DNA of 64,000 bases from the NCBI GenBank assembly GCA_965217775.1, contig CBDCJH010000002.1, positions 3,520,001-3,584,000 on the forward strand, read 5' to 3'. The notes beneath the pieces are model-generated. The model was not told where the DNA came from and made no database searches. It saw only the letters and a list, made by a program, of their open reading frames with translations. Positions 1,236 through 41,639 of this stretch are shown in pieces; within the stretch, counting starts at the first letter, position 1; each line of letters begins with the position of its first letter. Origin of the DNA: Acidobacteriota bacterium (GTDB lineage Bacteria > Acidobacteriota > UBA6911 > RPQK01 > JAJDTT01). The position numbers and the translations under genes are program-made.

Positions 1236-3144
1236 ATTGCTCCGGGTTCCGGGTCAACCCCGGAAACGTGGCCACCACCTCGTCTCCCGGCGACAGCACC
1301 ACGTAGAAGGGGAGCGCGATGGTCCCGAAGCGCTCCTGCTCGAGACGCATGTTCTCGGCATGCTCCGGTCCCGTGCCGTCGGTGTAGAGACGGATCAGAA
1401 GGTACTGGCGAAACCGCTCCTGAACCTTGGGCAGGGTAAAGACGTTCGCCTCCATCCAGCGGCAATTGGTGCAAGTGTAGCCGGTGAAGTCGATGAAAAC
1501 CGGCTTGCCCGACTCCCGGGCGCCGGCCAGACCGGCCTCGTAATCGTCGATCCACTCCAGTTCTTCCTCGGCACCGCCGGCAGTGGTGCCCACGATGGAC
1601 GCCGGATTCCCGTAGTCACGGGGAGGCAGGAACGCGTCCAATTCCCCCAGCGGGAACCCCACGAGGCCCCGAATCAGATGAATCGATATGGCGGCGAAGA
1701 AGATCGCGAAGAAGGCCCGCGGCACTCCGATTGAGTCGGACGCCTGCTCGTGCGGAAAGCGAAACCAGCCCAGGAGGTAAAAGAGGATCATCACGGAGAT
1801 AGCCAGCCAGATGGCGATCAGGCCCGGCCGGGTCAGAAGCTCCCATTGGTAGACCAGATCCACGTTGCTGAAGAACTTGAAGGCGAAAGCGACCTCCAGG
1901 AATCCCATCGTGATCTTGACCGAGTTCAGCCAGTTTCCGCTCCGGGGAAGCGATTTGAGCCAGGAGGGGAACAACGCCAACAGGAAGAAAGGCGAGGAGA
2001 AGACCACCGCAAACGAAGTCACTCCCACCAGGGACCAGAGCCAGTCCCCCTGGATGGCGGCGACCATCAGCGTCCCCACGAAGGGGACGGTGCAGGTGAA
2101 GGACACCAGCGAAAACGTCAGCGCCATGAGCAGGATCCCGGTGATCCCCCCCGTAGTCGACGCCTTCCGGTCCAACGCCGTGGTCCAATTGGCGGGGAGG
2201 CGAATCTCCAGCACTTCGAACAGGCTCAGGGCAAAAGCAATGAAGATTGCGGCGATCAGGAGATTGACGCCCGGGTTTGCCGCCAGGCGGTTGATTCCGC
2301 CCGAGCCGAAGAGGAAGGTGAGGCCGAATCCCAGGAGCGTAAAGGTCAGAATGATCCCCAGGGAATAGAGGGAGGCGTCCCGGAGCGCCTGACCACGCGT
2401 CACCGCCTGACGTTTGGTGAAGTAGGAGACGGTGATGGGGATCATGGGGAAAACGCAAGGCGTGAGTAGCGCCAGCGCTCCCATGCCCATGGCAAAGACG
2501 ATGTAGCCCAGGGTCTCCACCGGAATTCCGTCCGAGCCCCCGGCAGGAGCCGCGGCACTCGAGGCGGAATCAGGGGGCTCTTCCTGGACAACGGCCGCCG
2601 CCGTCTCCGATGCCGCTTCTGCGTCGGCGGGAGCGCCTGCAGCCGGCGACCGACCCTCCCCGACTTGCACGGAGGCTTCCAACACCTGGTTTCGGGGAGG
2701 TAGGCAGAGAGTATCGCTGCACACCATGAAGCGAACCTTGACACCGAGCGTCTCGTCGCCCGGCTCGGTGGAGGAACGCACTCGGACCGGAACGGAAAAA
2801 TCCACCTGGCCCTCGAAATACTCGGTATCGATTCCGAAGCTCGGATCGTAGGCGACGATGGGCGTCGGTTGGGTGACGGGACCAGCGGCCTCGAAGGCCG
2901 ACTCCTTCAGCACGGTCACCGTGGTCTTGACGGGCGGAGGGGGCTGATTGAGGGAGTAGAGGTGCCAACCCGGCACCAGTTCGGCACGCAGCGTCGCTTC
3001 GAAGACACTCCCGGCGGGAACCTCGCCCGAATCCACGAGCAACTCGAACCGGATCTTGTCCTGAGCCGGTAACGGAATAATCAGGAGCAACCAGACACTG
3101 CCGGCTCCACACGCTTTCACGATCTGTCGAATTGCATTTCTCAC
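1180..3144 (-). CDS. dsbD: Protein-disulfide reductase DsbD family (N-terminal Ig-like domain, TM domain, thioredoxin domain)
   Basis: GWHLYS, CSDTLCLPP, LTPCVFPMIP, SFTCTVP, FTGYTCTNC; GTG start overlapping the pyrC stop is inferred. Confidence 0.9.
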   Translation of the reverse strand: MRNAIRQIVKACGAGSVWLLLIIPLPAQDKIRFELLVDSGEVPAGSVFEATLRAELVPGWHLYSLNQPPPPVKTTVTVLKESAFEAAGPVTQPTPIVAYDPSFGIDTEYFEGQVDFSVPVRVRSSTEPGDETLGVKVRFMVCSDTLCLPPRNQVLEASVQVGEGRSPAAGAPADAEAASETAAAVVQEEPPDSASSAAAPAGGSDGIPVETLGYIVFAMGMGALALLTPCVFPMIPITVSYFTKRQAVTRGQALRDASLYSLGIILTFTLLGFGLTFLFGSGGINRLAANPGVNLLIAAIFIAFALSLFEVLEIRLPANWTTALDRKASTTGGITGILLMALTFSLVSFTCTVPFVGTLMVAAIQGDWLWSLVGVTSFAVVFSSPFFLLALFPSWLKSLPRSGNWLNSVKITMGFLEVAFAFKFFSNVDLVYQWELLTRPGLIAIWLAISVMILFYLLGWFRFPHEQASDSIGVPRAFFAIFFAAISIHLIRGLVGFPLGELDAFLPPRDYGNPASIVGTTAGGAEEELEWIDDYEAGLAGARESGKPVFIDFTGYTCTNCRWMEANVFTLPKVQERFRQYLLIRLYTDGTGPEHAENMRLEQERFGTIALPFYVVLSPGDEVVATFPGLTRNPEQFIDFLDRGLEANRSGRAG

Positions 3145-4424
3145 GCTGACTCCTGCCGGTGGACAACCCGGCCGCCCACCACGGTTAGAACCGGCATCCC
3201 GTGCAGCTCCCATCCCCGGAACGGACAGTTGCGTCCCTTGGACCTGAAGTGCGACGGATCCACCACCTGCCGGCGGTCCGGATCGATGACCGTAACGTCG
3301 GCATCCGCGCCTTCCGCCAAGGTGCCCTTCCCCAGCTTGAGAATCCGGCTGGGATTCAGGCTGAAGAGCTCCACCAGCCTGGAGACCGGGATGATTCTGG
3401 AACGGACCAGATGCTGCCAGCAGACTGGGATCGCCGTCTCCATGCCGACCACGCCACTGGCCGCTTCCTCGAACGGCTCCTCCTTGTCCAGCCGGGTGTG
3501 GGGCGCATGATCCGTGGCCAGACAGTCGATGGTCCCGTCCATCAGACCCTCCAACATGGCGTCGATATCGGGTTCTTCCCGCAGTGGAGGCATCATCTTG
3601 AAGTCGGTGTCGAAGTTCCGGATGTCTTCGTCGGTCAGGGTGAAGTGATGAGGCAACACTTCACAGGTGACTCGGATTCCCTGCGATTTGGCGACTCGCA
3701 CCTGGTCCAGCGACTCCCGCGTGGAGATGTGGAGAATATGGACTCTTGCGCCTGTGATCCGGCTCAGGATGATGTCCCGGACCACATGAAGCTCCTCGGC
3801 GGCACGGCTCATCCCCCGCAGCCCCAGACGGGTCGACGCCTTCCCTTCGTTCATGCATCCGCCGGCGGCCAGGAAGAGGTCCTCGCAGTGGTCCATCACC
3901 AGGATGTCGAAGATCCTGGCGTATTCCATCGCCCGCCGCATGACCTGACTGTTCTGCACCGGACGGCCGTCGTCGGTGACGGCGACGATCCCCGCCGCCT
4001 GCATCTCTCCGATTTCCGCCAGTTGCTCGCCCCGGGAGCCCACGGTGATGGCGCCCGTGGGAAAGACGTTCACCAACCCCGCATCGGCGGCCCGTTCCAG
4101 GATGAACCGGGTGATGGCGGCGTTGTCGTTGACCGGGGTCGTATTGGGCATGCAGACGATGCTGGTAAAGCCTCCGGCCGCCGCTGCCCGAGAGCCCGTG
4201 AGGATGGTCTCCTTGTCCTCCCGGCCCGGCTCTCGAAGATGCACGTGCATGTCGACGAAACCCGGCGTGACCACACAGCCCGCGACATCGATGACCTCGC
4301 GGCTCTTGCGGGCGGACAGCTTCCCCACAGCAACCACTTTCCCGTCTTCGAGGAGGACGTCCGCCCGCCCGTCCAGATCCTGGGACGGGTCCACGACCCG
4401 GCCTCCGCGCAGCAACAGACTCAC
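3141..4424 (-). CDS. pyrC: Dihydroorotase
   Basis: [26 protein letters not shown]. Confidence 0.95.
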
Positions 4425-5356
4425 GGTTCCTCCTCGCCGGCGCCCAACAGGAGATAGAGGACCGCCATTCTCACCGCCAGGCCGTTGGTCACCTGATTCA
4501 GTATGACCGAATGGTCGCCGTCGGCGACGTCCGGATCGATCTCGACGCCACGATTGATGGGTCCCGGATGCATGATGATGGCATCGTTACGGGCGGACCG
4601 CATCCTCTCCCGGCTCAGCCCGAAGAGGCGAAAATACTCCCGGACCGAGGGGAAGAAGACTTCGTGCTGCCGCTCCCTCTGGGCCCGGAGCATCATTACC
4701 ACGTCCGCGTCCGCCAGAGCCTCCTCCAGATGGAACGTCACCGTGGCCCCCAACTGCCCGAACTCCAGTGGTATCAGCGTCGGGGGACCGCAGATCCAGA
4801 CCCGGGCGCCCAGCTTGTTCAGGAGAAAGGTGTTGGAACGGGCGACCCGGCTATGGGAGATGTCCCCGACGATGGCGACCTTCAAGTCCCGGATGGAACC
4901 CTTACGCTCCAGGATGGTGTAGGCGTCCAGCAGCGCCTGGGTCGGATGCTCGTGCATACCGTCCCCGGCATTGACGATGGAGCACTCGCGGCAGGCTTCG
5001 GCCAGAAGCCAGGGCGCCCCGGCCGCCTGATGCCGCAGGACGATGATCTCGGGACTCATGGACTCCAGGTTGCGGGCCGTGTCGACGAGGGTCTCCCCCT
5101 TTCCCACGCTGCTCGTCGAAACGCTGAAATTAAGGATGTCGGCGCTCAGGCGCTTGGCGGCGATCTCGAAGGAAGAACGGGTGCGGGTGGACGCCTCGTA
5201 GAAGAGGTTGATGACCGACCGGCCTCGGAGAGTGGGCACCTTCTTGACCGGGCGGGTCGCGATTTCCCTGAAGCTCCGTGCCGTGTTCAGAATCAGCTCG
5301 ATGTCGGCGACCGGCATCCCTTCGATGCCCAGAAGATGCCTGCTGCTGAGCGGCAT
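4421..5356 (-). CDS. pyrB: Aspartate carbamoyltransferase catalytic subunit
   Basis: [35 protein letters not shown]. Confidence 0.97.
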
Positions 5357-5359
5357 GGT

Positions 5360-5893
5360 CTAAGAACCCTTCCGGGTGAGAAACACCCCTTCGTCCTCAT
5401 CCACAGGGGCGATGTGCACGTCGACCGTCTGGTCTTCCCGGGTATCGACCCGGCGACCCACGTAGTCGGCCTGAATGGGAAGCTCGCGGTGCCCCCGGTC
5501 GACGAGCACGATCAGCTCGACCCGCTTGGGCCGCCCGTAGTCCAGGAGACTCTCCAGGGCCGCACGCACGGTCCGGCCGGTGTAGAGCACGTCGTCCACC
5601 AGCAGCAGGGTCCGGCCGGTGACGGGAAAATCCAACTGGGACGCTCCGACGACAGGCTGCGGCCCGACCAGGGACAAATCGTCCCGATAGAAGTTGATGT
5701 CCAGGATCCCGAGCGGCAGGCTGTGCCCCGTCAGATCTTCGATATTCTGCTTCAGACGCCGTGCCAGGGGAACCCCCCGGCGGCGGATCCCCACCAGAGC
5801 CGCCTCCCGGAGATTCGGATGGGACTCGACCAGGTCCTTGGAGATCGCCAGGAGCGTGCGCTCCATCTCCCGACTCGTCATCAACAGTTGCAA
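5360..5893 (-). CDS. pyrR: Bifunctional pyr regulator / uracil phosphoribosyltransferase PyrR
   Basis: LDINFYRDD, LVDDVLYTGRT, DRGHRELPIQADYVG. Confidence 0.95.
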   Translation of the reverse strand: MQLLMTSREMERTLLAISKDLVESHPNLREAALVGIRRRGVPLARRLKQNIEDLTGHSLPLGILDINFYRDDLSLVGPQPVVGASQLDFPVTGRTLLLVDDVLYTGRTVRAALESLLDYGRPKRVELIVLVDRGHRELPIQADYVGRRVDTREDQTVDVHIAPVDEDEGVFLTRKGS

Positions 5894-6168
5894 CGGACTC
5901 CTCCGCTTCGGGGATGCCGGTCGTTCTCAAAACCGCCTCGCCACGGCGTCGCAACGATGCACCCCGCGATGACTCCGAGCACACAACGACTCCGGCAACA
6001 TGTGCCACGGGCAGACTGCGATTTGGAGATTAGCATAGCCGGAGCCCGGCGAGAATCAGTTGTGGCGAATTCGAAAAAGAAGGGCAGCGGCTGGGTCGAG
6101 TCCCTCCCGGTGAGCCCCCATTTCCCCGCTCCTCTCACTCTTGCTCTTCCCTGTGCTATCGTGAAGGG

Positions 6169-6996
6169 GTGATTCACGTGGTCCAGGCGCCGGTCGTCGG
6201 GAGCACCGGCTATCCCGGTTTCAACCACCTCTTGGCGCTTCGTTCCCCTGAGATCGCCTGCAGCTCGAAGCCCGGTCAGTTCGTCATGGCCGGTCTCATG
6301 GACTGCCCTTCCGACCCCCTTCTCAAGCGCGCCCTGGCCGTCTACTCGATCCCGCGCCCGGCCGGCGACGGCAGCATCCTCACGCTGTTGATCAAAATCG
6401 TGGGCCCGGGGACCCGCCTGCTTGCGGCACTCCGGGAAGGCGAGCGGGTCAGCCTGATCGGCCCGCTGGGAAACGGTTTCGACACCTCCCGGGCCAAGGG
6501 ACGGGTCAGCGTTCTGGTAGCGGGGGGAGTGGGCATCGCCTCCGTCTTCCTGTTGGCCAAGGAACTCAGCGAGGCCGGGGAGGAGGTCCATCTGTTGTAC
6601 GGCGCCCGCCGGGCCCGGGACCTGGTGGGACTCGAGGACTTTCAGGACCTGGGAATCCGGGTCCAGGTCGCTACGGAAGACGGCAGCCGGGGTTTCCGGG
6701 GACTGGTCACCCAGATTCTGGAACCTTACTTCCGCCGCTATCCGGCGCAGAGACTGGCCCTCTACACCTGCGGACCCAATCCCATGATGCAGGCCGTCTC
6801 CAGGCTGGCTTCCGTTCACGGAGCCGGTTGCCAAGTCTCGGTGGAGACTCCCATGGCCTGTGGCTTCGGCGTCTGCCTGGGGTGCAGTGTGAGGACCGTC
6901 CGATCCTATCGCCTGGCCTGCACCCATGGCCCCGTGTTTGACGCCCGAGAGGTGGTCTGGGACACGGCAACGGAAGGTGAAGGGGTCCATGCCTGA
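6169..6996 (+). CDS. pyrK: Dihydroorotate dehydrogenase electron transfer subunit
   Basis: PGQFVM, GPLGNGF, VAGGVGIA, MACGFGVCLGC...C 2Fe-2S motif. Confidence 0.92.
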   Translation: MIHVVQAPVVGSTGYPGFNHLLALRSPEIACSSKPGQFVMAGLMDCPSDPLLKRALAVYSIPRPAGDGSILTLLIKIVGPGTRLLAALREGERVSLIGPLGNGFDTSRAKGRVSVLVAGGVGIASVFLLAKELSEAGEEVHLLYGARRARDLVGLEDFQDLGIRVQVATEDGSRGFRGLVTQILEPYFRRYPAQRLALYTCGPNPMMQAVSRLASVHGAGCQVSVETPMACGFGVCLGCSVRTVRSYRLACTHGPVFDAREVVWDTATEGEGVHA

Positions 6997-7951
6997 TCCG
7001 GTCAGCCTTGCAGTGGAGATCTCCGGTATCCGTTTCAAGAACCCGGTGCTGACGGCGTCCGGCACCTTTGGCTACGGGTTGGAGTTCACCCGCTTCTTCG
7101 ACATCTCCCGGCTGGGCGGCTTCTGCACCAAGGGACTCTCCCTCCTGCCCCGTCCGGGCAATCCTCCCGGCCGCATCTTCGAGACGCCGTCGGGGATGCT
7201 CAACGCCATCGGACTGGAGAACGTGGGCGTGGAAGCATTCATCCGCGACAAGCTTCCGCGACTGGAACCCTACGAGACCCACGTCATCGCCAACATCTTC
7301 GGCAAGAGCATCGGCGAGTTCATAGCCATCACCGACCGGCTCAATCCCTGCCCCAAGGTGAGCGCTCTGGAGTTGAACATCTCCTGTCCCAACATCACCG
7401 AGGGAGGAATCGAGTTCGGACACGATCCGGACCTGACCTTCCAGGTGGTGGAGGCCGTGACCCGGGTCTCGGCCAAACCGGTCTGGGTGAAGCTCTCGCC
7501 CAATGTCACCGACATCCGCATCTTCGCCCGAGCCTGCCAGGAGGCGGGAGCCGATGCCATCAGCCTGGTCAACACCTTCGTGGGTATGAGCGTGGATGTT
7601 CACCGGCGCCGGCCCATGATCTCCAATGTGACCGCCGGCCTTTCCGGGCCGGCCATCCGGCCCCTGGCGGTCCGGCTGGTCCATCAGGTCGCCGCCAGCG
7701 TCGAGATTCCCGTCATCGGCATCGGAGGCATCGCCACCACCCGGGACGCGTTGGAGTTTCTCATTGCCGGCGCCCGGGCGGTCCAACTCGGGACCGCCAA
7801 CTTCTCCGATCCGTTGGCCTCGTTGAAGGTGGTCCAGGGTCTGGAAGAATATTGCCGGATTCACGGAATTCGGGACGCCAACCGGATCTCGGGTTCGTTG
7901 CGAACCCGGGAGACGTCGGTCCCTTCCGGTGCGGCCGGCGGAGGCGGGTAA
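6989..7951 (+). CDS. pyrD: Dihydroorotate dehydrogenase (class 1B) catalytic subunit
   Basis: ASGTFGYG, ELNISCPN, VKLSPNVTDI, GLSGPAIRP. Confidence 0.95.
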   Translation: MPDPVSLAVEISGIRFKNPVLTASGTFGYGLEFTRFFDISRLGGFCTKGLSLLPRPGNPPGRIFETPSGMLNAIGLENVGVEAFIRDKLPRLEPYETHVIANIFGKSIGEFIAITDRLNPCPKVSALELNISCPNITEGGIEFGHDPDLTFQVVEAVTRVSAKPVWVKLSPNVTDIRIFARACQEAGADAISLVNTFVGMSVDVHRRRPMISNVTAGLSGPAIRPLAVRLVHQVAASVEIPVIGIGGIATTRDALEFLIAGARAVQLGTANFSDPLASLKVVQGLEEYCRIHGIRDANRISGSLRTRETSVPSGAAGGGG

Positions 7952-7954
7952 GAC

Positions 7955-8572
7955 ATGCGAATCGCATTGCACAGCCTCGGGCACGGGTTGAAGGCGATCC
8001 TGATCGCATTCCACCTCCTCCCAGCGGCCCCGGCGGCTCTTGCGCAGTTGTCGCCGACCGACACGACCGAATCGGCGACGGCCTCAGCCTGCCACGCCTT
8101 CGTCGACTTCGAAAACATCTGGACCGTGGAGTTGATCCGATCCCGAGACGACAAGATCACTCCCATCCTGAACATCGTCACTTTCACCAAGGGGGAGTGG
8201 GACCTGAGACCCGATCAGATCCACATCTTCAACCGCAAGGGTAAGGAGGCCCGGATCAAGCGCTTCGCCCTGGATACGGGTGTTCCCGGAGACGCCTACA
8301 AGAGCAACTACCTGAAGGTTCTGGGAAACAGCTTCGTCGGAATCGACCTGGAAGGCAAGCTCAAGGACTTCCCTTCCTCCCCCCGTGTCACCATCGACCT
8401 GGCGCACCATCGCTTCGAGCTCCAGCCTCTGGACTGCGAAGCCTTCGACAACCTGGCCCACCGGATCAACAAGATCAATTTCAACAGCCCCGACATCCGG
8501 GAAGATTTCGATCTGATCAAGATTCCCCACCTGGGGCGGAGGCTGCCCCGGCCCAAGCCTCACGAGTGGTGA
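7955..8572 (+). CDS. Hypothetical exported protein
   Basis: Signal-peptide-like N-terminus, host codon usage, 3 nt after pyrD. Confidence 0.7.
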   Translation: MRIALHSLGHGLKAILIAFHLLPAAPAALAQLSPTDTTESATASACHAFVDFENIWTVELIRSRDDKITPILNIVTFTKGEWDLRPDQIHIFNRKGKEARIKRFALDTGVPGDAYKSNYLKVLGNSFVGIDLEGKLKDFPSSPRVTIDLAHHRFELQPLDCEAFDNLAHRINKINFNSPDIREDFDLIKIPHLGRRLPRPKPHEW

Positions 8573-17523: not shown

Positions 17524-17933
17524 ACGGTCCGTTGTTCGGAGCGGACTAGGAAGAATTCTACATGGCCTAAATGCTGTGCCGATCGTACCTGGGGATGCGG
17601 GCCGAGGGGATTCTGTCCATCGCCCGCCATCTGGCCTCCGCCCCGGGGTCCGATGCCGCAGGGAAGGTTCACTTGGTAGGCATAGGCGAGGCCGGACCCG
17701 CCGCCCTCCATGCCGCGGCCGTGGAACCGGCGCTGTTCGCTTCACTGGAGCTGCGCCGGTCGCTGGTCTCCCGGTCCAACTTGATTCAGACCGAGGTGCC
17801 CGTCAACCAGTTGGTCAACACGGTCCACGCTTCGTTGCAGAAATACGATCTGCCCGATCTTCTGAAGAGCCTCTCCGGAATGAAGGTCACGGTCGTCGAA
17901 CCGACCGGCAGCGCTGGCGAGCCCATACCGTAA
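17524..17933 (+). pseudogene. 3' fragment duplicate of the 10750-12891 esterase
   Basis: Aligns to 12482-12891; TGG>TAG and TAC>TAA nonsense changes near its 5' end. Confidence 0.9.
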
Positions 17934-18730
17934 CCCGCTTTTCCACCGGGGGCTCGGCCTACCCCGCATTTCTCACCAGGTCGCTACGCGTATGATGAAA
18001 AATAATCTGTTTTTGAGCATTTACGCGGAATTTTCCAAGGTTTCTCCGGGACCGACTGCGCGATCGTCACGCCCCCTGATGTAGAGTCGAGGAGAGGCGC
18101 GACGGCGGTAGGTCGGAGGGAGTCGCTGTTGCCGGCGGCTTTCGCCATCATGCCGGTGCCTCAATCTCCACCGTGGCCACGTTTCCTCTCCCCGCTCTCC
18201 GAACCCGCCGTGCGCTTTCCCCGCAGCGGGCTCTCCAGTGGGACCATGCCGCTCGCACACGGGTCGATTCGTCAGCGGCGGGAATGGCGCAACGGCTTCC
18301 GCCGCCCGCAGTCCCCCGCTCCCGCGCGGTCCCACGGTCGTTCCCCTTCGCTTTCGCATGCGGTGGTTCCAGCGCTTCCGAACTCAAACCGGGGTTCCAG
18401 GCCAGGCCACTCCCGGAGTCCTTCGCACTTTCCCTCACCCGTCCTCACCTGAGGCCCCTTCCCTCCACCGGCGTTAGCCGGATTCTCCGGTACTACGGCC
18501 CTCTCCGCCACCCCGACGGCCCAGGCCGGTCCTCGCGGATTCCCGGTTGACGCGTGCCACGTCACCGGCGGGGCTTCCCGTGTTGCCACTCTCTCCCTCC
18601 TATCCGCATGCCATCGCCAATACCCCGGCGGAACCGGACGGTGCTCGCGTCGCTCGCTTCCCGTCCGCTGGCAGCCTTCCCCGTATTCTCGGCGGGTCGG
18701 CTTCCGCATTACCCGTTTCGAGGCCTGCGC

Positions 18731-18822
18731 AGCGTTTTATGCGCTGTTCCACGTTATGCGCTGTTGCCACCGTATCCCCTTACGCTATCAGAGCCGCACC
18801 GCGATTCAACAGCGCATAACGG
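18731..18822. repeat. RIT left inverted repeat (pairs with 22099-22190)
   Basis: Outer 36 bp perfect (AGCGTTTTATGCGCTGTTCCACGTTATGCGCTGTTG), about 92 bp imperfect in total. Confidence 0.85.
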
Positions 18823-18877
18823 GCGATCCTCGGCGATCATGGCGGGATCTTTTTGCCTTCAGGAAGGAGATCCTGTC

Positions 18878-20141
18878 ATGTTTGAATACGAACAAATCTT
18901 CAAGCGAACCGACGCGGTTCAGCGACACCTTGCCGCTCCGCTGCTACGTTCCCGCCTCGCCTACCTCGGCCACCGAGCCGAGCAGGGTGCGAAGCCATCC
19001 ACGCTCCGAGGCATCGCCGCCTTCCAAGTCCAAGCCATCCATTATTTGGAACTGGCCGAGGAAGGCCAGATCACGCCGTCGGAGATTGCAACCGCCGCCG
19101 AGCGGTGGGTCACCCAGCATCCCGCCCGCCGGGGCGGCAATGCCAGCAATGCCCGCCGCGACTTCGTCTCGCGGGTCACCGGCTGGCTGAGCTTCGCGGG
19201 CCGCATGCAGGTTCCGTCGGTCGCGCCCCCTCCGCACTGCCCCGAACTCGTGCAATTCGAGGATTACATGCGGTGGGAACGGGGCTGGTCCGAGGTCACG
19301 ATCCGCTACCGTCTCGGACGGGCGGAGGACTTGCTGCGCCGGTGTTGCCGGGCCCACCGGACACTGGCCGATCTCTCACTCACCACCATCGACCGCGCAC
19401 TCGGCGCCCGCAACTCCAAGGACGGGCGTCCTCGTGCTCGCGCCACGATCCGCAACCACGCGGACGCTCTGCGCGCATTCCTGCGCTTCGCCGCAGTCCG
19501 CGGCTGGTGCCCGCCGGGGTTGGCCGCGGCGATCACGGCTCCCCGTGTCTACAAAGCTGTCACGCTGCCGGCAGGACCCTCCCCAGAAGACCTGCGGCGC
19601 CTGCTCGCGACCACCACGGGCGACCGGCCAGCGGATGTACGCGACCGGGCGCTCCTGCTGACGCTCTCCGTTTACGGACTGCGCGCGGGCGAGGCGCAGG
19701 CGCTGCGGCTGGATGACATCAACTGGGAAGCAGAGACGCTCCGGGTGCGCCGTCCCAAGACGGGGCGCACCACCTGGTTCCCGCTGTCCCGCCGCGTCGG
19801 AGAGGCCTTGGCGCGCTATCTCCGCGAGGCTCGCCCGCGCACCGACACCCGGCAGGTCTTCCTCACGCTCAAGGTCCCGGTCCGACCGCTCGGCGCCTCC
19901 ACGATCAGCAGCGTCGTCCGCAGCCGCATGCGCCGCTGCGGCATCGAATGCGAGCGTCGCGGAGCCCACGCCTTGCGGCATGCCTTTGCGAGAGCGCTTG
20001 CTGGACGAGGGCTTCTCCATGACAGAAATCGGGGACTGCCTCGGGCACCGCAGTCCGGACGCGACCGCGGTGTACGCAAAAGTCGACCTTGCCGGCCTGC
20101 GCCAAGTGGTGGCCGACTTCGACCTGGAGGGACTGGCATGA
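18878..20141 (+). pseudogene. RIT tyrosine recombinase A with a +1 frameshift at about 19991
   Basis: RDRA..YGLRAGE, HALRHAFA; the LGHRSPDATAVY tail lies in another frame ending TGA at 20141; span is 3n+1. Confidence 0.8.
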
Positions 20142-21091
20142 TACTACGCGAGGCGATCGACCAATACATCGTCTGGCAGCGGGCGCGGGGAGCGAGCTTC
20201 GAATCCTCAGCCTACGCGTTGCGCCGCTTCCGCCGTAGCGTCGGCAGCGCCATCGGCTCCGACGAGGTCCGCGCCGACCAGGCTCGCGCCTTCCTGGACG
20301 AGGGCGCGACCTCCGCCAGCAACCGGGCGTTTCTGCACTCCGCACTGAGGGGCTTTTACCGCTACGCCATCGCGCGCGGTCTCGCGACCCACTCGCCCTT
20401 GCCGCCGCAGCCTCCGCAGGCCTCCCCGCGCTCGACGCCCTACATTTATTCGCACGATGAGCTGCGCCGCCTGCTGGATGCGACGAAGAGCTACCGGAAA
20501 CGGGTCAACCAGCTGGAGCCGTACACCTTCCGCGCGCTGCTGCTGTTGTTGTACGGAGCCGGCTTGCGCCGTGGCGAGGCGCTCCGCCTCACGCTGGCCG
20601 ATGTCGACCTGCGCACCGCGCTGCTCACCGTTCGCCAGACGAAGTTCGACAAGACTCGCTACGTGCCCCTTGCCCCGCAACTCGCACGAGCGATGCAGCG
20701 ATACGCCGCCCAACGAAAGGCGGCGGGCGCTCCGCAAGCAGGCGAGGCGCCGTTCTTCGCCAACCGCGACGGCACGCCGCTGGCGGCCCGAACCGTCAGC
20801 AACGCCTTCGCTCGACTGCGGCAGGCGGCCGGCGTGGTCCGCGGGAACGCAGCGCGCTATCAACCGCGCCTGCACGATCTGCGCCACTCGTTCGCCGTGC
20901 ACCGACTGACCGCTTGGCACCGCCAGGGAAAGGATGCGCAACGCCTGCTGCCGCCGCTGTCCACCTACTTGGGCCACTCCAGCGTCGCCGCCACCCAAGT
21001 CTACCTCGACCTGACTCCCGAACTGCTGCGGGCGGCCGCGTCGCGGTTCCAGCGCTACGCGGCCAGCGGGAATGGAGGCCGCCATGACTGA
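20138..21091 (+). CDS. RIT tyrosine recombinase B
   Basis: PYIYS, GLRRGEAL, TKFDKTR, RLHDLRHSFAV, LSTYLGH..ATQVY; ATGA overlap and GGAGG RBS. Confidence 0.9.
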   Translation: MILREAIDQYIVWQRARGASFESSAYALRRFRRSVGSAIGSDEVRADQARAFLDEGATSASNRAFLHSALRGFYRYAIARGLATHSPLPPQPPQASPRSTPYIYSHDELRRLLDATKSYRKRVNQLEPYTFRALLLLLYGAGLRRGEALRLTLADVDLRTALLTVRQTKFDKTRYVPLAPQLARAMQRYAAQRKAAGAPQAGEAPFFANRDGTPLAARTVSNAFARLRQAAGVVRGNAARYQPRLHDLRHSFAVHRLTAWHRQGKDAQRLLPPLSTYLGHSSVAATQVYLDLTPELLRAAASRFQRYAASGNGGRHD

Positions 21092-22091
21092 CACACACGC
21101 TCTCGGCCCCTGGCTACGACGCTTTCTCGGGGAGTATCTCGTCAGCGAGCGCAACCTGGCTCGCAATACGCAGCTCAGCTACCGTGACACTTTGTTCCTG
21201 CTGCTTCGCTTCGCCGCCGCCCAGGCGCGCACCCCGGTGGACCGGCTGACTGTCCGCGACCTGGGTGCCGAGCGCGCGTGCGCGTTCTTGGCGCACCTTG
21301 AGCAGGAGCGCGGCTGTTCCCCGCGCACCCGCAACCAGCGGCTCGCCGCCATCCGCTGCTTCGCCCGCTATGTCGCCGGCCGCTGTCCCGAACACGTCGC
21401 CTGGTGTAACCAAGTCCGCGCCATTCCGCTCAAGAAGGCCGTGCCTCCGCCGGTCGGCTACCTGGAAAAGCACGAGATCGACGCCTTACTCGATGCCCCG
21501 GACACTTCCACGCCCCAGGGCCGGCGCGAGCGCGCCCTGCTCTTGTTTCTCTACCACACCGGAGCTCGAGCATCCGAGGCGGCGCAACTGACCGTCAGGA
21601 GCCTGCAACTGGCCGGCAACGGCCCGGGCCACTCGCTCGTCACCTTGCAGGGCAAGGGCGGCAAGACCCGCCTGTGTCCGCTGCTGCCCGCCTCGGCGCG
21701 AGCACTCGCGCCGCTGGTCCAAGGGCGCGCAGCCGGGGAGGCGGTCTTCCTCAGTCGGCTGCGGCGACCGATCACCCGCTCCGGCATCCGCCAACTGGTC
21801 ATCCGTTGTGCGGCGAAAGCCGCCCAGCAGTCACCGTCGCTGGTCGCCAAGAAGGTCGGACCGCACCTGCTGCGCCATACGGCGGCAACACACATGCTGC
21901 GCTCGGGAGTGGATCTCAACACCATCCGAGCTTGGCTAGGCCACGCCCGGATCGACACTACGACTGTCTACGCTGAAATCGATCTTCAGAGGAAGGCGAA
22001 AGCGATCATGCTCTTCGACTCGGACGAACCAGCGCCGGACCCGTCGTATCGCGATGACGAAGGTCTGATGGCCTTCCTGCAATCGTTGTGA
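21084..22091 (+). CDS. RIT tyrosine recombinase C
   Basis: SYRDT, TRNQRLAAI, TGARASE, GKGGK, PHLLRHT, IRAWLGH..TTTVYA. Confidence 0.92.
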   Translation: MTDTHALGPWLRRFLGEYLVSERNLARNTQLSYRDTLFLLLRFAAAQARTPVDRLTVRDLGAERACAFLAHLEQERGCSPRTRNQRLAAIRCFARYVAGRCPEHVAWCNQVRAIPLKKAVPPPVGYLEKHEIDALLDAPDTSTPQGRRERALLLFLYHTGARASEAAQLTVRSLQLAGNGPGHSLVTLQGKGGKTRLCPLLPASARALAPLVQGRAAGEAVFLSRLRRPITRSGIRQLVIRCAAKAAQQSPSLVAKKVGPHLLRHTAATHMLRSGVDLNTIRAWLGHARIDTTTVYAEIDLQRKAKAIMLFDSDEPAPDPSYRDDEGLMAFLQSL

Positions 22092-22098
22092 TCGCCAA

Positions 22099-22216
22099 CC
22101 GTTATGCGCTGTTGAATCGCGGCCCCACCCTGATAGCGCAACGGGATACGGCGGCAACAGCGCATAACGTGGAACAGCGCATAAAACGCTTTATGTGCTA
22201 CAGCGCATAAAGCGTT
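22099..22216. repeat. RIT right inverted repeat plus adjacent 32-bp palindrome
   Basis: IR 22099-22190; palindrome AACGCT-TTATGTGCTACAGCGCATAA-AGCGTT at 22185-22216. Confidence 0.8.
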
Positions 22217-22466
22217 CACAAGTTACGGCCTGCGGATTCGCTGAGTCGCCTAACGCGACCCTTTGGCATCGGAGTGCTTCAGTCCAATTCGTTACCTCCT
22301 TGAACCGCTCCGACTGCTACCGGCTGGAGCGACAGTTGCCGGGCGGGCTTCGCACCCGCTAGGAGAAAGCGCCTTTCCACGGCGCACGAGAAATGCGGGC
22401 TACAAGAACAAAAACTTTTACTACGGGCAGAGGGTTGAAGTCTTCCAGCCTTGTTCGAGCTGAGGA

Positions 22467-23747
22467 CTAACCGCTCCTGGCCTTGCGGGTGAAGTATTCG
22501 GCGTTGGCGGGAAATGAGCTCAGACGCTGTATCAGATCGTTTCGCACGCCCCGAAAAGCATCCAGATGCTGCGGAGCCACCGGTTTCTCGGGTGGAAACC
22601 GGAGCTTGGCGGGGTTCCGATACCGGCCGCTACGATCCTGGATCCGATAGTCCAGATGGGGCCCCGTGGAGAGGCCGGTGGATCCGACTCTCCCGATGAC
22701 CTGCCCCTGATCCACGCGCTGGCCACGGCGCACCTGGATTCGGGACAGATGCGCATAGCTGGTGGAATATTGTCCGTGGCGGATCCTCACCATCTTTCCA
22801 TATCCCCCGTTGCGGCCGGCGAATGAGACGGTCCCGGAAGCAACCGAGAGCACCTCGGTGCCGGTGGGAGCGCCGTAATCGACTCCCAGGTGCGGGCGCC
22901 GCCGCTTCAAAACGGGATGGTATCGAGAGTAGGAGAAGCCTGAAGTGATGCGCGGATCGAACTTGAAGGGCACCCGGAGGAAGGCCTTCCGCAGGGAGTT
23001 CCCCCCCTCGTCGAAATAATCCTCCTTCCCCGTCTTGGGATCCGCAAACAGGAATCCGAAGAAACTCCTGTCCATCCGGTCGAAGCGGACGGCCAACACA
23101 TCGCCGTACTTGACGAACCGGCCGGCCCGGTACTTCTTCTCCACCAGCAAGGTGATGGCGTCCTGGGGCTGCAGCTGAGTGAAATCGAGGTCCCAGCCAA
23201 GAATATCCAGGACCTTGATCACGAGGGCGTACTGCTCACCCTGGGAGACGAGGGCGTGGGACAGGTTGGTCCGGATCTCCCCGAAGACCCGTTCTTCCTC
23301 GAGTTGGAAGTCGTATTTGTGACGAGTCGCCACGTAACGGTCGCGCACCTGGCGGACGACCAGGTACTCCTCTTCGTCGATGTCGTAGCGGACGCTCCGA
23401 AACGATCCGTCGAGTTCCTGCTCCAGCACCAGGCGGTTCCCCGGCCGCACCCGGTCCAGGTTGTATACGGGACGGGTATCCTCCACCAGGCGGTGGATCT
23501 CCGAACCGGACACCTCGAACTCCCGCAGGACGGTCGCCAAGGTGGCGCCGTGAGGGATGCCTGTCCTGCGAACCGTCACCCGGTCGGATTCAGGAAGCTG
23601 AGGGACAGCCGCCTTCGGAGCCGTCGCCGAGGATGCCGGGTCGTCCTTCAGGTCGAATTGGGGCCACAGAGTCAGAACCGCCAAGATCGCCAGAATCGAG
23701 AAACCGGCCAAAAGGCCAAGACCGAACCTGCTCTTTATCGGACCCAC
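22467..23747 (-). CDS. M23-family peptidoglycan DD-metalloendopeptidase (MepM-like)
   Basis: N-terminal TM; HLGVDYGAPTGT, YAHLS, STGPHLDY. Confidence 0.92.
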   Translation of the reverse strand: MGPIKSRFGLGLLAGFSILAILAVLTLWPQFDLKDDPASSATAPKAAVPQLPESDRVTVRRTGIPHGATLATVLREFEVSGSEIHRLVEDTRPVYNLDRVRPGNRLVLEQELDGSFRSVRYDIDEEEYLVVRQVRDRYVATRHKYDFQLEEERVFGEIRTNLSHALVSQGEQYALVIKVLDILGWDLDFTQLQPQDAITLLVEKKYRAGRFVKYGDVLAVRFDRMDRSFFGFLFADPKTGKEDYFDEGGNSLRKAFLRVPFKFDPRITSGFSYSRYHPVLKRRRPHLGVDYGAPTGTEVLSVASGTVSFAGRNGGYGKMVRIRHGQYSTSYAHLSRIQVRRGQRVDQGQVIGRVGSTGLSTGPHLDYRIQDRSGRYRNPAKLRFPPEKPVAPQHLDAFRGVRNDLIQRLSSFPANAEYFTRKARSG

Positions 23748-41482: not shown

Positions 41483-41639
41483 CCCGAATTTCTCATCAGG
41501 CCGCTGAGCTGACAATGAAAAACATCTTGTTTTCAGTCAACTACGCGGTTTTTATCAATGTTTCTCCCGTACAGGCTGCGCTGGGCGCGCGCTCGCTGGT
41601 CTTTTCGCGATCATCGCGCCCCCTGATGAGAAATGCGGG
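41483..41639. mobile_element. IS1380-like MITE (family 2), intact 157 bp
   Basis: TIRs CCCGAATTTCTCATCAGG / CCTGATGAGAAATGCGGG; CTAG duplicated at 41479-41482 and 41640-41643. Confidence 0.85.

Follow-up and report, generated by a model that had tools for sequence, protein, structure and literature searches.

The locus described here lies in a window of 64,000 nucleotides (G000:C2:3520001-3584000, the whole stretch of DNA that was analysed) of an Acidobacteriota genome of 6.43 Mb, assembled as two contigs, and consists of three mobile elements placed one inside the other: a miniature inverted-repeat transposable element (MITE) of the IS1380 family, a group II intron lodged in one end of the MITE and, within the intron, a recombinase-in-trio element (RIT). 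The insert (17963-22399) measures 4,437 bp and is flanked on both sides by CTAC; to its left a small open reading frame (ORF) ends at 17933, and to its right a Peptidase_M23 gene on the opposite strand ends at 22467, the two flanking genes being convergent. A first-pass annotation, made from the sequence alone, had described this arrangement and its junctions: the four junction claims were checked and all of them hold to the exact base, the CTAC duplication bounding the MITE included. We consider it very probable that the locus is a fossil stack of three selfish elements between convergent genes, each of which inserted into the layer beneath it and thereby disabled that layer.

Sister genomes and contigs from public runs carry the flanking genes without the element, which shows that the nest was inserted at this locus. 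Indeed, the same two genes are found 15-187 nt apart, with no nest DNA between them, in five of the eight sister genomes (G006, G001, G005, G002 and G007), the remaining three having yielded no syntenic flank pair; the closest empty site is that of G006, whose flanks are 98% and 93% identical. Four public runs, all from mixed communities, were compared as contigs, and contigs from two of them (X9 and X1) connect position 17922 to 22460 with 65 or 30 other letters in between, the shorter side of the X9 empty-site contig measuring 238 nt. The coordinates of the features are collected in Table 1.

Table 1. Features of the nested insertion and of an uninterrupted MITE relative (positions in the window; TIR, terminal inverted repeat; EBS, exon-binding site; IR, inverted repeat).
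Feature	Position	Strand	Basis
Left target-site duplication CTAC	17959..17962	.	read in sequence
MITE body: left TIR and internal part, stopping 12 nt short of the right end	17963..18080	+	TIR shared with IS1380-family element
Intron 3' part (positions 172-827): distal domain I, ORF-free domains II-IV, domains V and VI; one core copy included	18081..18736	-	
Long intron domain VI; bulged A seven nt from the 3' end, read by eye; ends CUCUAC	18081..18201	-	
Intron domain V	18202..18235	-	RF00029 alignment
EBS1 loop GAGAAUA, pairing with UUCUC at the 5' exon end (TIR nt 8-12)	18684..18690	-	hairpin in covariation-supported fold
Candidate EBS2 AUGCGG, complementary to CCGCAU (TIR nt 2-7)	18704..18709	-	putative, read from alignment
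Left outer crossover core AGCGTT	18731..18736	+	
RIT left IR, with repeated arms TTATGCGCTG	18731..18822	+	92-nt arms, 91% complementary
ritA, frameshifted by one extra base near 19990-19997; the 47 terminal codons, to which the catalytic C-terminus belongs, are out of frame	18878..20141	+	
ritB, 4-bp overlap with ritA (ATGA)	20138..21091	+	PF00589, 92 bits
ritC, 8-bp overlap with ritB	21084..22091	+	PF00589, 110 bits; N-terminal SAM-like domain
RIT right IR, terminating in inverted inner core AACGCT (22185-22190)	22099..22190	+	
20-bp palindrome TTATGTGCTA/CAGCGCATAA beyond the right IR, made up of two recombinase-arm motifs that abut	22191..22210	+	
Right outer core AGCGTT	22211..22216	+	
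Intron 5' part (positions 1-171), begins GUGCGCC	22217..22387	-	RF02003, 89 bits
Outer 12 nt of MITE right TIR (GAGAAATGCGGG); equals the intron 5' exon on the minus strand	22388..22399	+	
Right target-site duplication CTAC	22400..22403	.	read in sequence
Uninterrupted MITE relative, 157 bp, flanked by CTAG	41483..41639	+	

The outer layer: an IS1380-family MITE

The outer layer is delimited by the terminal inverted repeat (TIR) CCCGCATTTCTCACCAGG, which starts at 17963, and by the inverted copy of it, which terminates at 22399, the pattern of the MITE TIR being CCCGCATTTCTCA[CT]CAGG; without the intron the element amounts to 118 + 12 = 130 bp. About 40 relatives are found in the genome by BLAST, and a scan for the 12-nt TIR end returned 47 short TIR pairs, most commonly of 130 bp (10 pairs) or 240 bp (10 pairs), with identical flanking 4-mers, mostly CTAG/YTAR, in 16 of the 47. 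The empty relative that had been pointed out at 41483-41639 is indeed a member of the same family, of 157 bp and with CTAG flanks. The exact 12-nt TIR word is present in 66 copies in the genome, four of which are followed by the intron. The same end (the 12 nt plus ACCAG) bounds a 5,232-bp element at C2:2805839-2811070 which carries a DDE_Tnp_1_4 (PF13701) gene in two pieces, the two fragments being matched with E values of 1.4e-52 and 1.7e-82. IS1380-family elements, as known from ISfinder, have ends in CC and duplicate 4-5 bp of their target.

The outer layer belongs to the IS1380-family MITEs: it shares its TIR with an element of that family, and it is short, non-coding, multicopy and bounded by a target-site duplication. 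An IS5-type MITE, suggested by the YTAR-like duplications, was dropped when PF13701 was found inside the TIR-matched element. Other mobile DNA is associated with this family and with the intron fragments in the same genome. Another copy of the MITE (L002, G000:C2:1093000-1096000) carries an insertion sequence (IS) of the IS110 family (PF01548 and PF02371), and a second type of MITE, with ends CAGCCCGTGGCAAAAGTC.., lies inside two old intron fragments, at G000:C2:3331300-3331512 and C2:628211-628262, the former case being also present in the orthologous locus of G007 (L037).

The middle layer: an ORF-less group II intron

The intron is read on the minus strand from 22387 to 18081, where it begins with GTGCGCC and ends with CTCTAC. 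Its excision rejoins ..GCCCCCTGAT/GAGAAATGCGGG, which is the right end of the uninterrupted MITE at 41483-41639, so that the proposed restoration of the right TIR on removal of the intron is borne out. When rebuilt without 18737-22216, the intron measures 827 nt; aligned with a paralog at C2:3331929-3331512 it runs without a gap across the RIT junction, with 91% identity over positions 1-415, and the site is likewise gap-free in 18 of the 19 copies fetched from relatives that cover positions 172-177. The earlier proposal that removing the RIT together with one AGCGTT copy restores a continuous intron is thus correct.

The element is a group II intron, with GUGYG..AY ends, a domain I-IV fold and pairing between exon-binding site 1 (EBS1) and intron-binding site 1 (IBS1), and lacks an intron-encoded reverse transcriptase (RT)/maturase. 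The Rfam model group-II-D1D4-4 (RF02003) matches it at 22218-22361(-) with 89 bits against a cut-off of 49, and the consensus fold of seven members of the intron family comprises 129 pairs, 33 of them with compensatory changes. What speaks against this assignment is the domain V/VI model (RF00029), which at 18081-18235(-) scores 34.6 bits (E 3.6e-4) against a cut-off of 40. The domain V helix and the AGC triad are readable in the window intron, and a homologous domain V in another locus (L065) scores 46.6 bits. The pairing of domain VI is our reading of the sequence by eye and should be regarded as putative.

The copies in sister species are about 1,990 nt long. Their identity to the window intron is 90-94% in positions 1-456 and 86-90% in the 155-182 nt at the 3' end, and when full-length they encode a protein of 463 aa with RVT_1 and GIIM domains (RT and maturase) and without an endonuclease domain. 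In the window copy, positions 457-645 stand in place of about 1,360 nt of these relatives, and no ORF or protein remnant is found in its 827 nt. Since its relatives encode an RT/maturase, the window copy is an ORF-less derivative, which is a known state of members of group II intron families; the same ORF-less form is carried by G002 (L027). No cognate intron protein was found in the genome, where the best tblastn match, 32-35% identical, comes from a different intron present 11-13 times. This other group II intron, whose near-identical copies contain an RVT_1 ORF of 526 aa, occupies 13 places in G000:C2 (for example 5165000-5168500); despite these copies, the Pfam maturase model PF08388 has no match in the genome. 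The same ORF-less intron is also present in a second MITE, at G000:C2:488704-489460, again inserted at this point of the TIR; in that copy, intron positions ~13-302 are deleted and 78 nt are inserted near position 600.

Homing of the intron to the IS1380-type end

The first-pass annotation had suggested that the target of the intron is the MITE/IS1380 end, and this is strongly supported by the junctions of the intron family and by covariation between EBS1 and the exons. In this genome, five of five 5' junctions follow a (Y)TAR + CCCGCATTTCTC(A)-like end, some of them decayed; an IS1380-type end likewise precedes the junction in 19 of 19 cases in relatives from three genera, and in both cases read in an unrelated metagenome-assembled genome (MAG) labelled Candidatus Azophilus. 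Altogether, the IS1380-type end is found before each of the 26 5' junctions examined.

In the consensus fold EBS1 corresponds to a hairpin loop of 7-9 nt around intron position 218, and the loop changes along with the exon: UGAGAAA goes with the exon end UUUCUCA, UGAAUUA with UAAUUCA, and UGAGAUU with an exon ending AUAUCUCA (AUCUCA). Where the loop has no leading U (GAGAAUA, GAGAAAA), the insertion is found one nucleotide earlier, after ..UUUCUC, and the window copy is among these, with five contiguous EBS1/IBS1 pairs. Over the family, contiguous EBS1-exon pairing averages 6.05 (n=19), as compared with 3.5 for mismatched loop/exon partners (n=224). A first candidate for EBS1, GGAGAAU near position 430, was dropped as it shows no covariation with the exons, unlike the loop near 218. 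On the evidence of these sequence comparisons, the homing of the intron to the TIR can be taken as established. Distant plasmid introns, whose protein is 53-59% identical, have no TIR-type 5' exon, a readable 5' end being available in two of the three; homing to the TIR is therefore a trait of the subfamily only. This subfamily appears to read the IS1380-type inverted repeat (IR) through EBS1 and a candidate EBS2, and as its target is that repeat, the target spreads together with the transposon and its MITEs.

The inner layer: a RIT with two outer cores and an end palindrome

The RIT measures 3,480 bp and occupies 18737-22210 plus one copy of AGCGTT. Phage_integrase (PF00589) matches are found in all three rit genes, and RitA, RitB and RitC are 36%, 44% and 48% identical to the proteins of another trio in the same order. 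The ritA gene carries a +1 frameshift: by tblastn the reading frame changes at ~19996, leaving the 47 terminal codons in a different frame, and the Pfam Phage_integrase match of the gene is limited to profile positions 5-138 of 172. Related contigs from runs X5, X6 and X9 are one base shorter than the window at 19990/19994, and a 935-nt contig of run X1, which may come from the source sample, matches 19706-20640, frameshift included, with one difference. The element is a RIT by its ordered and overlapping trio, its IRs with an end palindrome and its length of ~3.5 kb; the trio is not intact, owing to the frameshift in ritA. As the rebuilt intron is continuous in the paralog and in relatives, comparison of empty and filled sites places the entry of the RIT at GUGA/ACGCU/GCGC, within domain I, in an unpaired strand that lies ~40 nt upstream of the EBS1 hairpin.

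At the left end the order is flank, AGCGTT and the arms TTATGCGCTG, and at the right end CAGCGCATAA, AACGCT, a 20-bp two-arm palindrome, AGCGTT and flank. The same plan is found with other cores: AGGTAG in L001, CAGGCC in L047, TTGCGA in L055 and L061, and GGATGC in L060, L062 and L139; L007 follows it with one mismatch. The end palindrome lies by ritC or by ritA, depending on the RIT. In G007, L046 has outer cores GACGTG, an inner core CCCTCC and the palindrome on the ritC side, while L054, a second copy of the same RIT, has outer cores GGAGGG, an inner core CACGTC and the palindrome on the ritA side: the swapped cores look as if each copy had used a different one of two cores. In eight of the 11 RITs read the outer copies equal the inverted inner copy, and this identity fits a crossover that requires identical cores. 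The RIT at L006 (G000:C2:1687000-1694500, RIT at locus positions 2033-5469) departs from the end model, having no end palindrome; its mirror-image ends reach 11 nt past the core, and it lies ~740 bp upstream of a 23S rRNA gene.

Does the RIT select the intron?

Among related RITs there is clear site specificity for other mobile DNA, namely intron domain V and transposase genes. Among 66 loci, which were picked by likeness to the window RitC and hence are no random sample, at least 10 have a RIT at one fixed position of domain V, in different organisms, the same 6-mer being their core: four of the nine genome-derived loci (L058, L059, L060 and L062) abut ..AGCC/GGATGC or GTATGC in the 5' strand of domain V, and six of the 57 metagenome-derived loci (L127, L128, L129, L135, L138 and L139) are found at the same position, L134 being ambiguous. 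An empty-site paralog of L060 (L065, 1399-1507) is 97% identical and continuous. In L060, which comes from another organism, the stack itself is repeated: a full IS1380 element (PF13701), an ORF-less intron of the same family behind its TIR, and a RIT, the RitC of which is only 50% identical to that of the window. The ORF at L060:812-2467, considered as an intron protein, was rejected since it is the IS1380 transposase.

Transposase genes are the other class of site. In L001 (G000:C2:2803000-2813000, element 2840-8071) a second RIT of the same genome as the window interrupts the transposase gene of an IS1380-family element with the same TIR as the MITE; in L117 it splits the istA gene of IS21 between the HTH and rve domains, in L055 and L061, both from one MAG, it lies at the start of istA, and in L111 it lies in another rve transposase. 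The L055, L061 and L117 RITs have RitC proteins 53-67% identical to that of the window. L055 and L061 share flanks, and their RIT therefore travels inside a repeated element. A 125-nt fragment from the 3' end of the window's intron type is found at L001, 465 bp outside the IS1380-family element. Five metagenome loci (L107, L118, L122, L135 and L141) show long perfect inverted repeats starting at the contig end, and were set aside as probable fold-back assemblies.

For the lineage of the window RIT, targeting of the intron is plausible by analogy with these elements. The core lies in a stretch that is kept in 16 of 17 aligned members of the intron family. One contig of run X5 (side of 30) joins a RIT arm and AGCGTT to a different variant of domain I; this may represent another insertion at the site in question, and we take it as a lead only. 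Joints between 18730 and 22211 also occur in the runs; their sides measure only 20-21 nt, and they derive most likely from RIT-free introns of other organisms. The search for close relatives covered several sets: BLAST finds the window RIT in a single copy in its genome, the pattern of its IR arms has no match in the genome contigs searched, 40 related genomes hold no relative above 66% nucleotide identity, relatives retrieved with flanks reach at best 67% and 68% RitC identity (two scans), and a scan of plasmids reached 56.5%. Metagenome assemblies contain proteins 80-89% identical to the window RitC.

Several results weigh against selection of the intron by the RIT. As the window RIT is a single copy, its site preference rests on one event and on analogy with other lineages, for which the loci were not drawn at random. 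In a sample of RITs across the phylum, none of 20 loci has an Rfam group II match within 1.5 kb of ritC and none of 26 has a match to an intron protein, and two of the four RITs in the genome itself (L006 and L007) have flanks that were matched to no mobile element. Moreover, the 10-nt flanks of the target are, by eye, unlike the RIT arms, and a 6-bp core alone would mean low specificity.

These observations lend themselves to an explanation of the third level by chance and survivorship, in which the RIT integrates at any AGCGTT and persists here since dead intron DNA within a MITE costs nothing. It accounts for a single-copy RIT that has no close relative with readable flanks, for the lack of arm-like sequence beside the target core and for the 20 phylum-sampled RITs of which none adjoins an intron. 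However, AGCGTT occurs at 1,922 sites in the genome, of which three are in DNA of the intron family and two of these are the present duplicates, so that only about 2 of about 1,920 sites lay in intron DNA before the event, non-coding DNA being in general far more abundant. The conservation of the core stretch, the fixed domain V site that other RIT lineages occupy in at least 10 loci of different organisms, and the RITs that split conserved parts of transposase genes are also at odds with it, and we consider such a chance origin rather unlikely.

Selection of the intron by the RIT can be extended into a broader proposal, which we put forward tentatively and hold to be somewhat short of an even bet: RITs would be dedicated parasites of mobile elements, with the two cores that flank the palindrome of a presumed circular form matched to motifs of their hosts (GGAUGC in domain V, AACGCU in domain I, IS21 istA and the IS1380 transposase), and the stack of IS1380 element, intron and RIT would be a recurrent food chain and no accident. 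Under the parasite proposal, a lineage could shift from one host motif to another, because either core is usable and the last-used core is carried along; the window RIT would then be the first member read of a lineage that targets domain I.

Order of events and proposed history

The order transposition, retrohoming and RIT integration, as the first-pass annotation had it, is supported by the nesting and by the empty orthologous sites. In the history that we propose, a non-autonomous IS1380-family MITE of 130 bp would have transposed to this place once the lineage had separated from the closest of the sister species sampled, duplicating CTAC. The ORF-less intron of 827 nt would then have retrohomed into the bottom strand of the right TIR of the MITE, after TIR nucleotide 12, the site being chosen by RNA-DNA pairing of EBS1 (GAGAA) with UUCUC and probably of EBS2 (AUGCGG) with CCGCAU, which together would cover 11 of the 12 terminal nucleotides of the TIR; the protein would have been supplied in trans by a full-length copy since lost from the genome. 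At the third step, the 3.48-kb RIT would have entered domain I by a conservative tyrosine-recombinase crossover at the 6-bp core AGCGTT. Its circular form is envisaged as IR_R-core-[palindrome]-core-IR_L, in which either core could cross with an identical target 6-mer, the palindrome ending up by ritC or by ritA. The RIT would have been aimed at the intron, beyond merely surviving there, and ritA would later have acquired its +1 frameshift. All three layers are now disabled, and the nest is inert and intergenic.

A different order, in which the MITE arrived here with the intron, and perhaps also the RIT, already inside it, so that all moved as one unit and the CTAC duplication was made when the composite inserted, is in our view improbable. 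In its favour, CTAC flanks the 4,437-bp unit as a whole and the right TIR is intact in its outermost 12 nt; moreover, the intron in the second MITE at C2:488704-489460 is 98-99% identical and occupies the same place in the TIR. However, the two MITE hosts, 96% identical over 104 nt and diverging thereafter, differ more than their introns do, which fits two separate homing events; in addition, neither the composite nor the RIT occurs a second time in the genome, and the inner part of the right TIR lies 4.3 kb from its outer 12 nt. That repeats were misjoined in assembly and the nest is not one molecule is highly improbable: sequence from the MITE and from the intron does reach a depth in the thousands in the public runs, where it is high-copy, and the absence of a junction-bridging contig among the longest run contigs listed counts against the nest as we read it, but the genome is assembled in two contigs, the junctions are base-exact with the footprints that the mechanisms predict (4-bp duplication, GUGYG..AY and 6-bp core), the depth of the RIT in four runs is within the range of the flanking genes, and the X1 contig mentioned above reproduces the frameshifted ritA. 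The interpretation originally given, of each element using the previous one as a safe-harbour target, is thus partly supported, the nest being real and fossil.

Comparison with known systems

Each component of the nest is of a known kind. The outer layer resembles IS1380 insertion sequences and their MITEs in its ends beginning with CC, its 4-bp duplication, the DDE_Tnp_1_4 transposase and the many short, non-coding copies that share the TIR; as a MITE it is ordinary in comparison with others of this family, and what is particular to it is the use of the TIR as a homing site by an intron family.

For the middle layer, the closest parallel is RmInt1, which homes into ISRm2011-2 of Sinorhizobium meliloti (PMC1802570, PMC4496777, PMC4181065). 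RmInt1 is likewise a bacterial intron that encodes an RT and maturase protein lacking an endonuclease domain and that naturally homes to a site within an insertion sequence, and its fragmented and ORF-less remnants pile up as do those of the window intron family. Unlike RmInt1, the window family targets the TIR itself (nt 2-12), common to IS1380-type elements and MITEs, and not an internal IS site, and this target is reused across several genera and in an unrelated MAG.

The first-pass annotation had not recognised the combination as described. In this respect, a RIT inside a group II intron was not found in the literature searched, which excluded Ricker et al. 2013 (Plasmid 70:226) and supplements, whereas introns in insertion sequences and RITs in transposons have already been published. 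RITs, known for example from Cupriavidus metallidurans CH34, are reported from two kinds of mobile host, a Tn6049-like transposase gene in Acidithiobacillus ferrooxidans and the radC gene carried by an integrative and conjugative element, with an inverted repeat that overlaps a palindrome and with mobility given as unproven (PMC3414803). Where these sources deal with transposition of RITs, it is presented as not reproduced, and target specificity and movement are listed as not tested (PMC10214605 Table 1, PMC3414803); raised mobilome coverage without a circular junction has been reported (PMC5737581).

The window element agrees with the published RITs, as portrayed in PMC3414803, in the ritA-ritB-ritC overlaps of 4-8 bp, the length of ~3.5 kb, the inverted repeat with an end palindrome and the insertion in a mobile element. 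A further likeness is to the multi-recombinase tyrosine transposons, whose junctions are governed by a 6-bp sequence (PMC10214605), as those of the RITs also depend on 6 bp; according to the account given there, those elements carry 6 bp of donor flank to the new site, whereas the RITs described here have identical direct outer repeats. What sets the window RIT apart from the published ones, as far as the cited descriptions go, is its host, namely DNA that codes for a group II intron ribozyme; moreover, filled and empty sites are both available, so that the 6-bp core can be read. While the mobility of RITs is unsettled, these loci provide filled and empty sites at single-base resolution, and the repeated end layout (core, IR ... 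IR, inverted core, palindrome, core), together with the pair of copies that have alternate cores, constitutes a concrete and testable model of the RIT.

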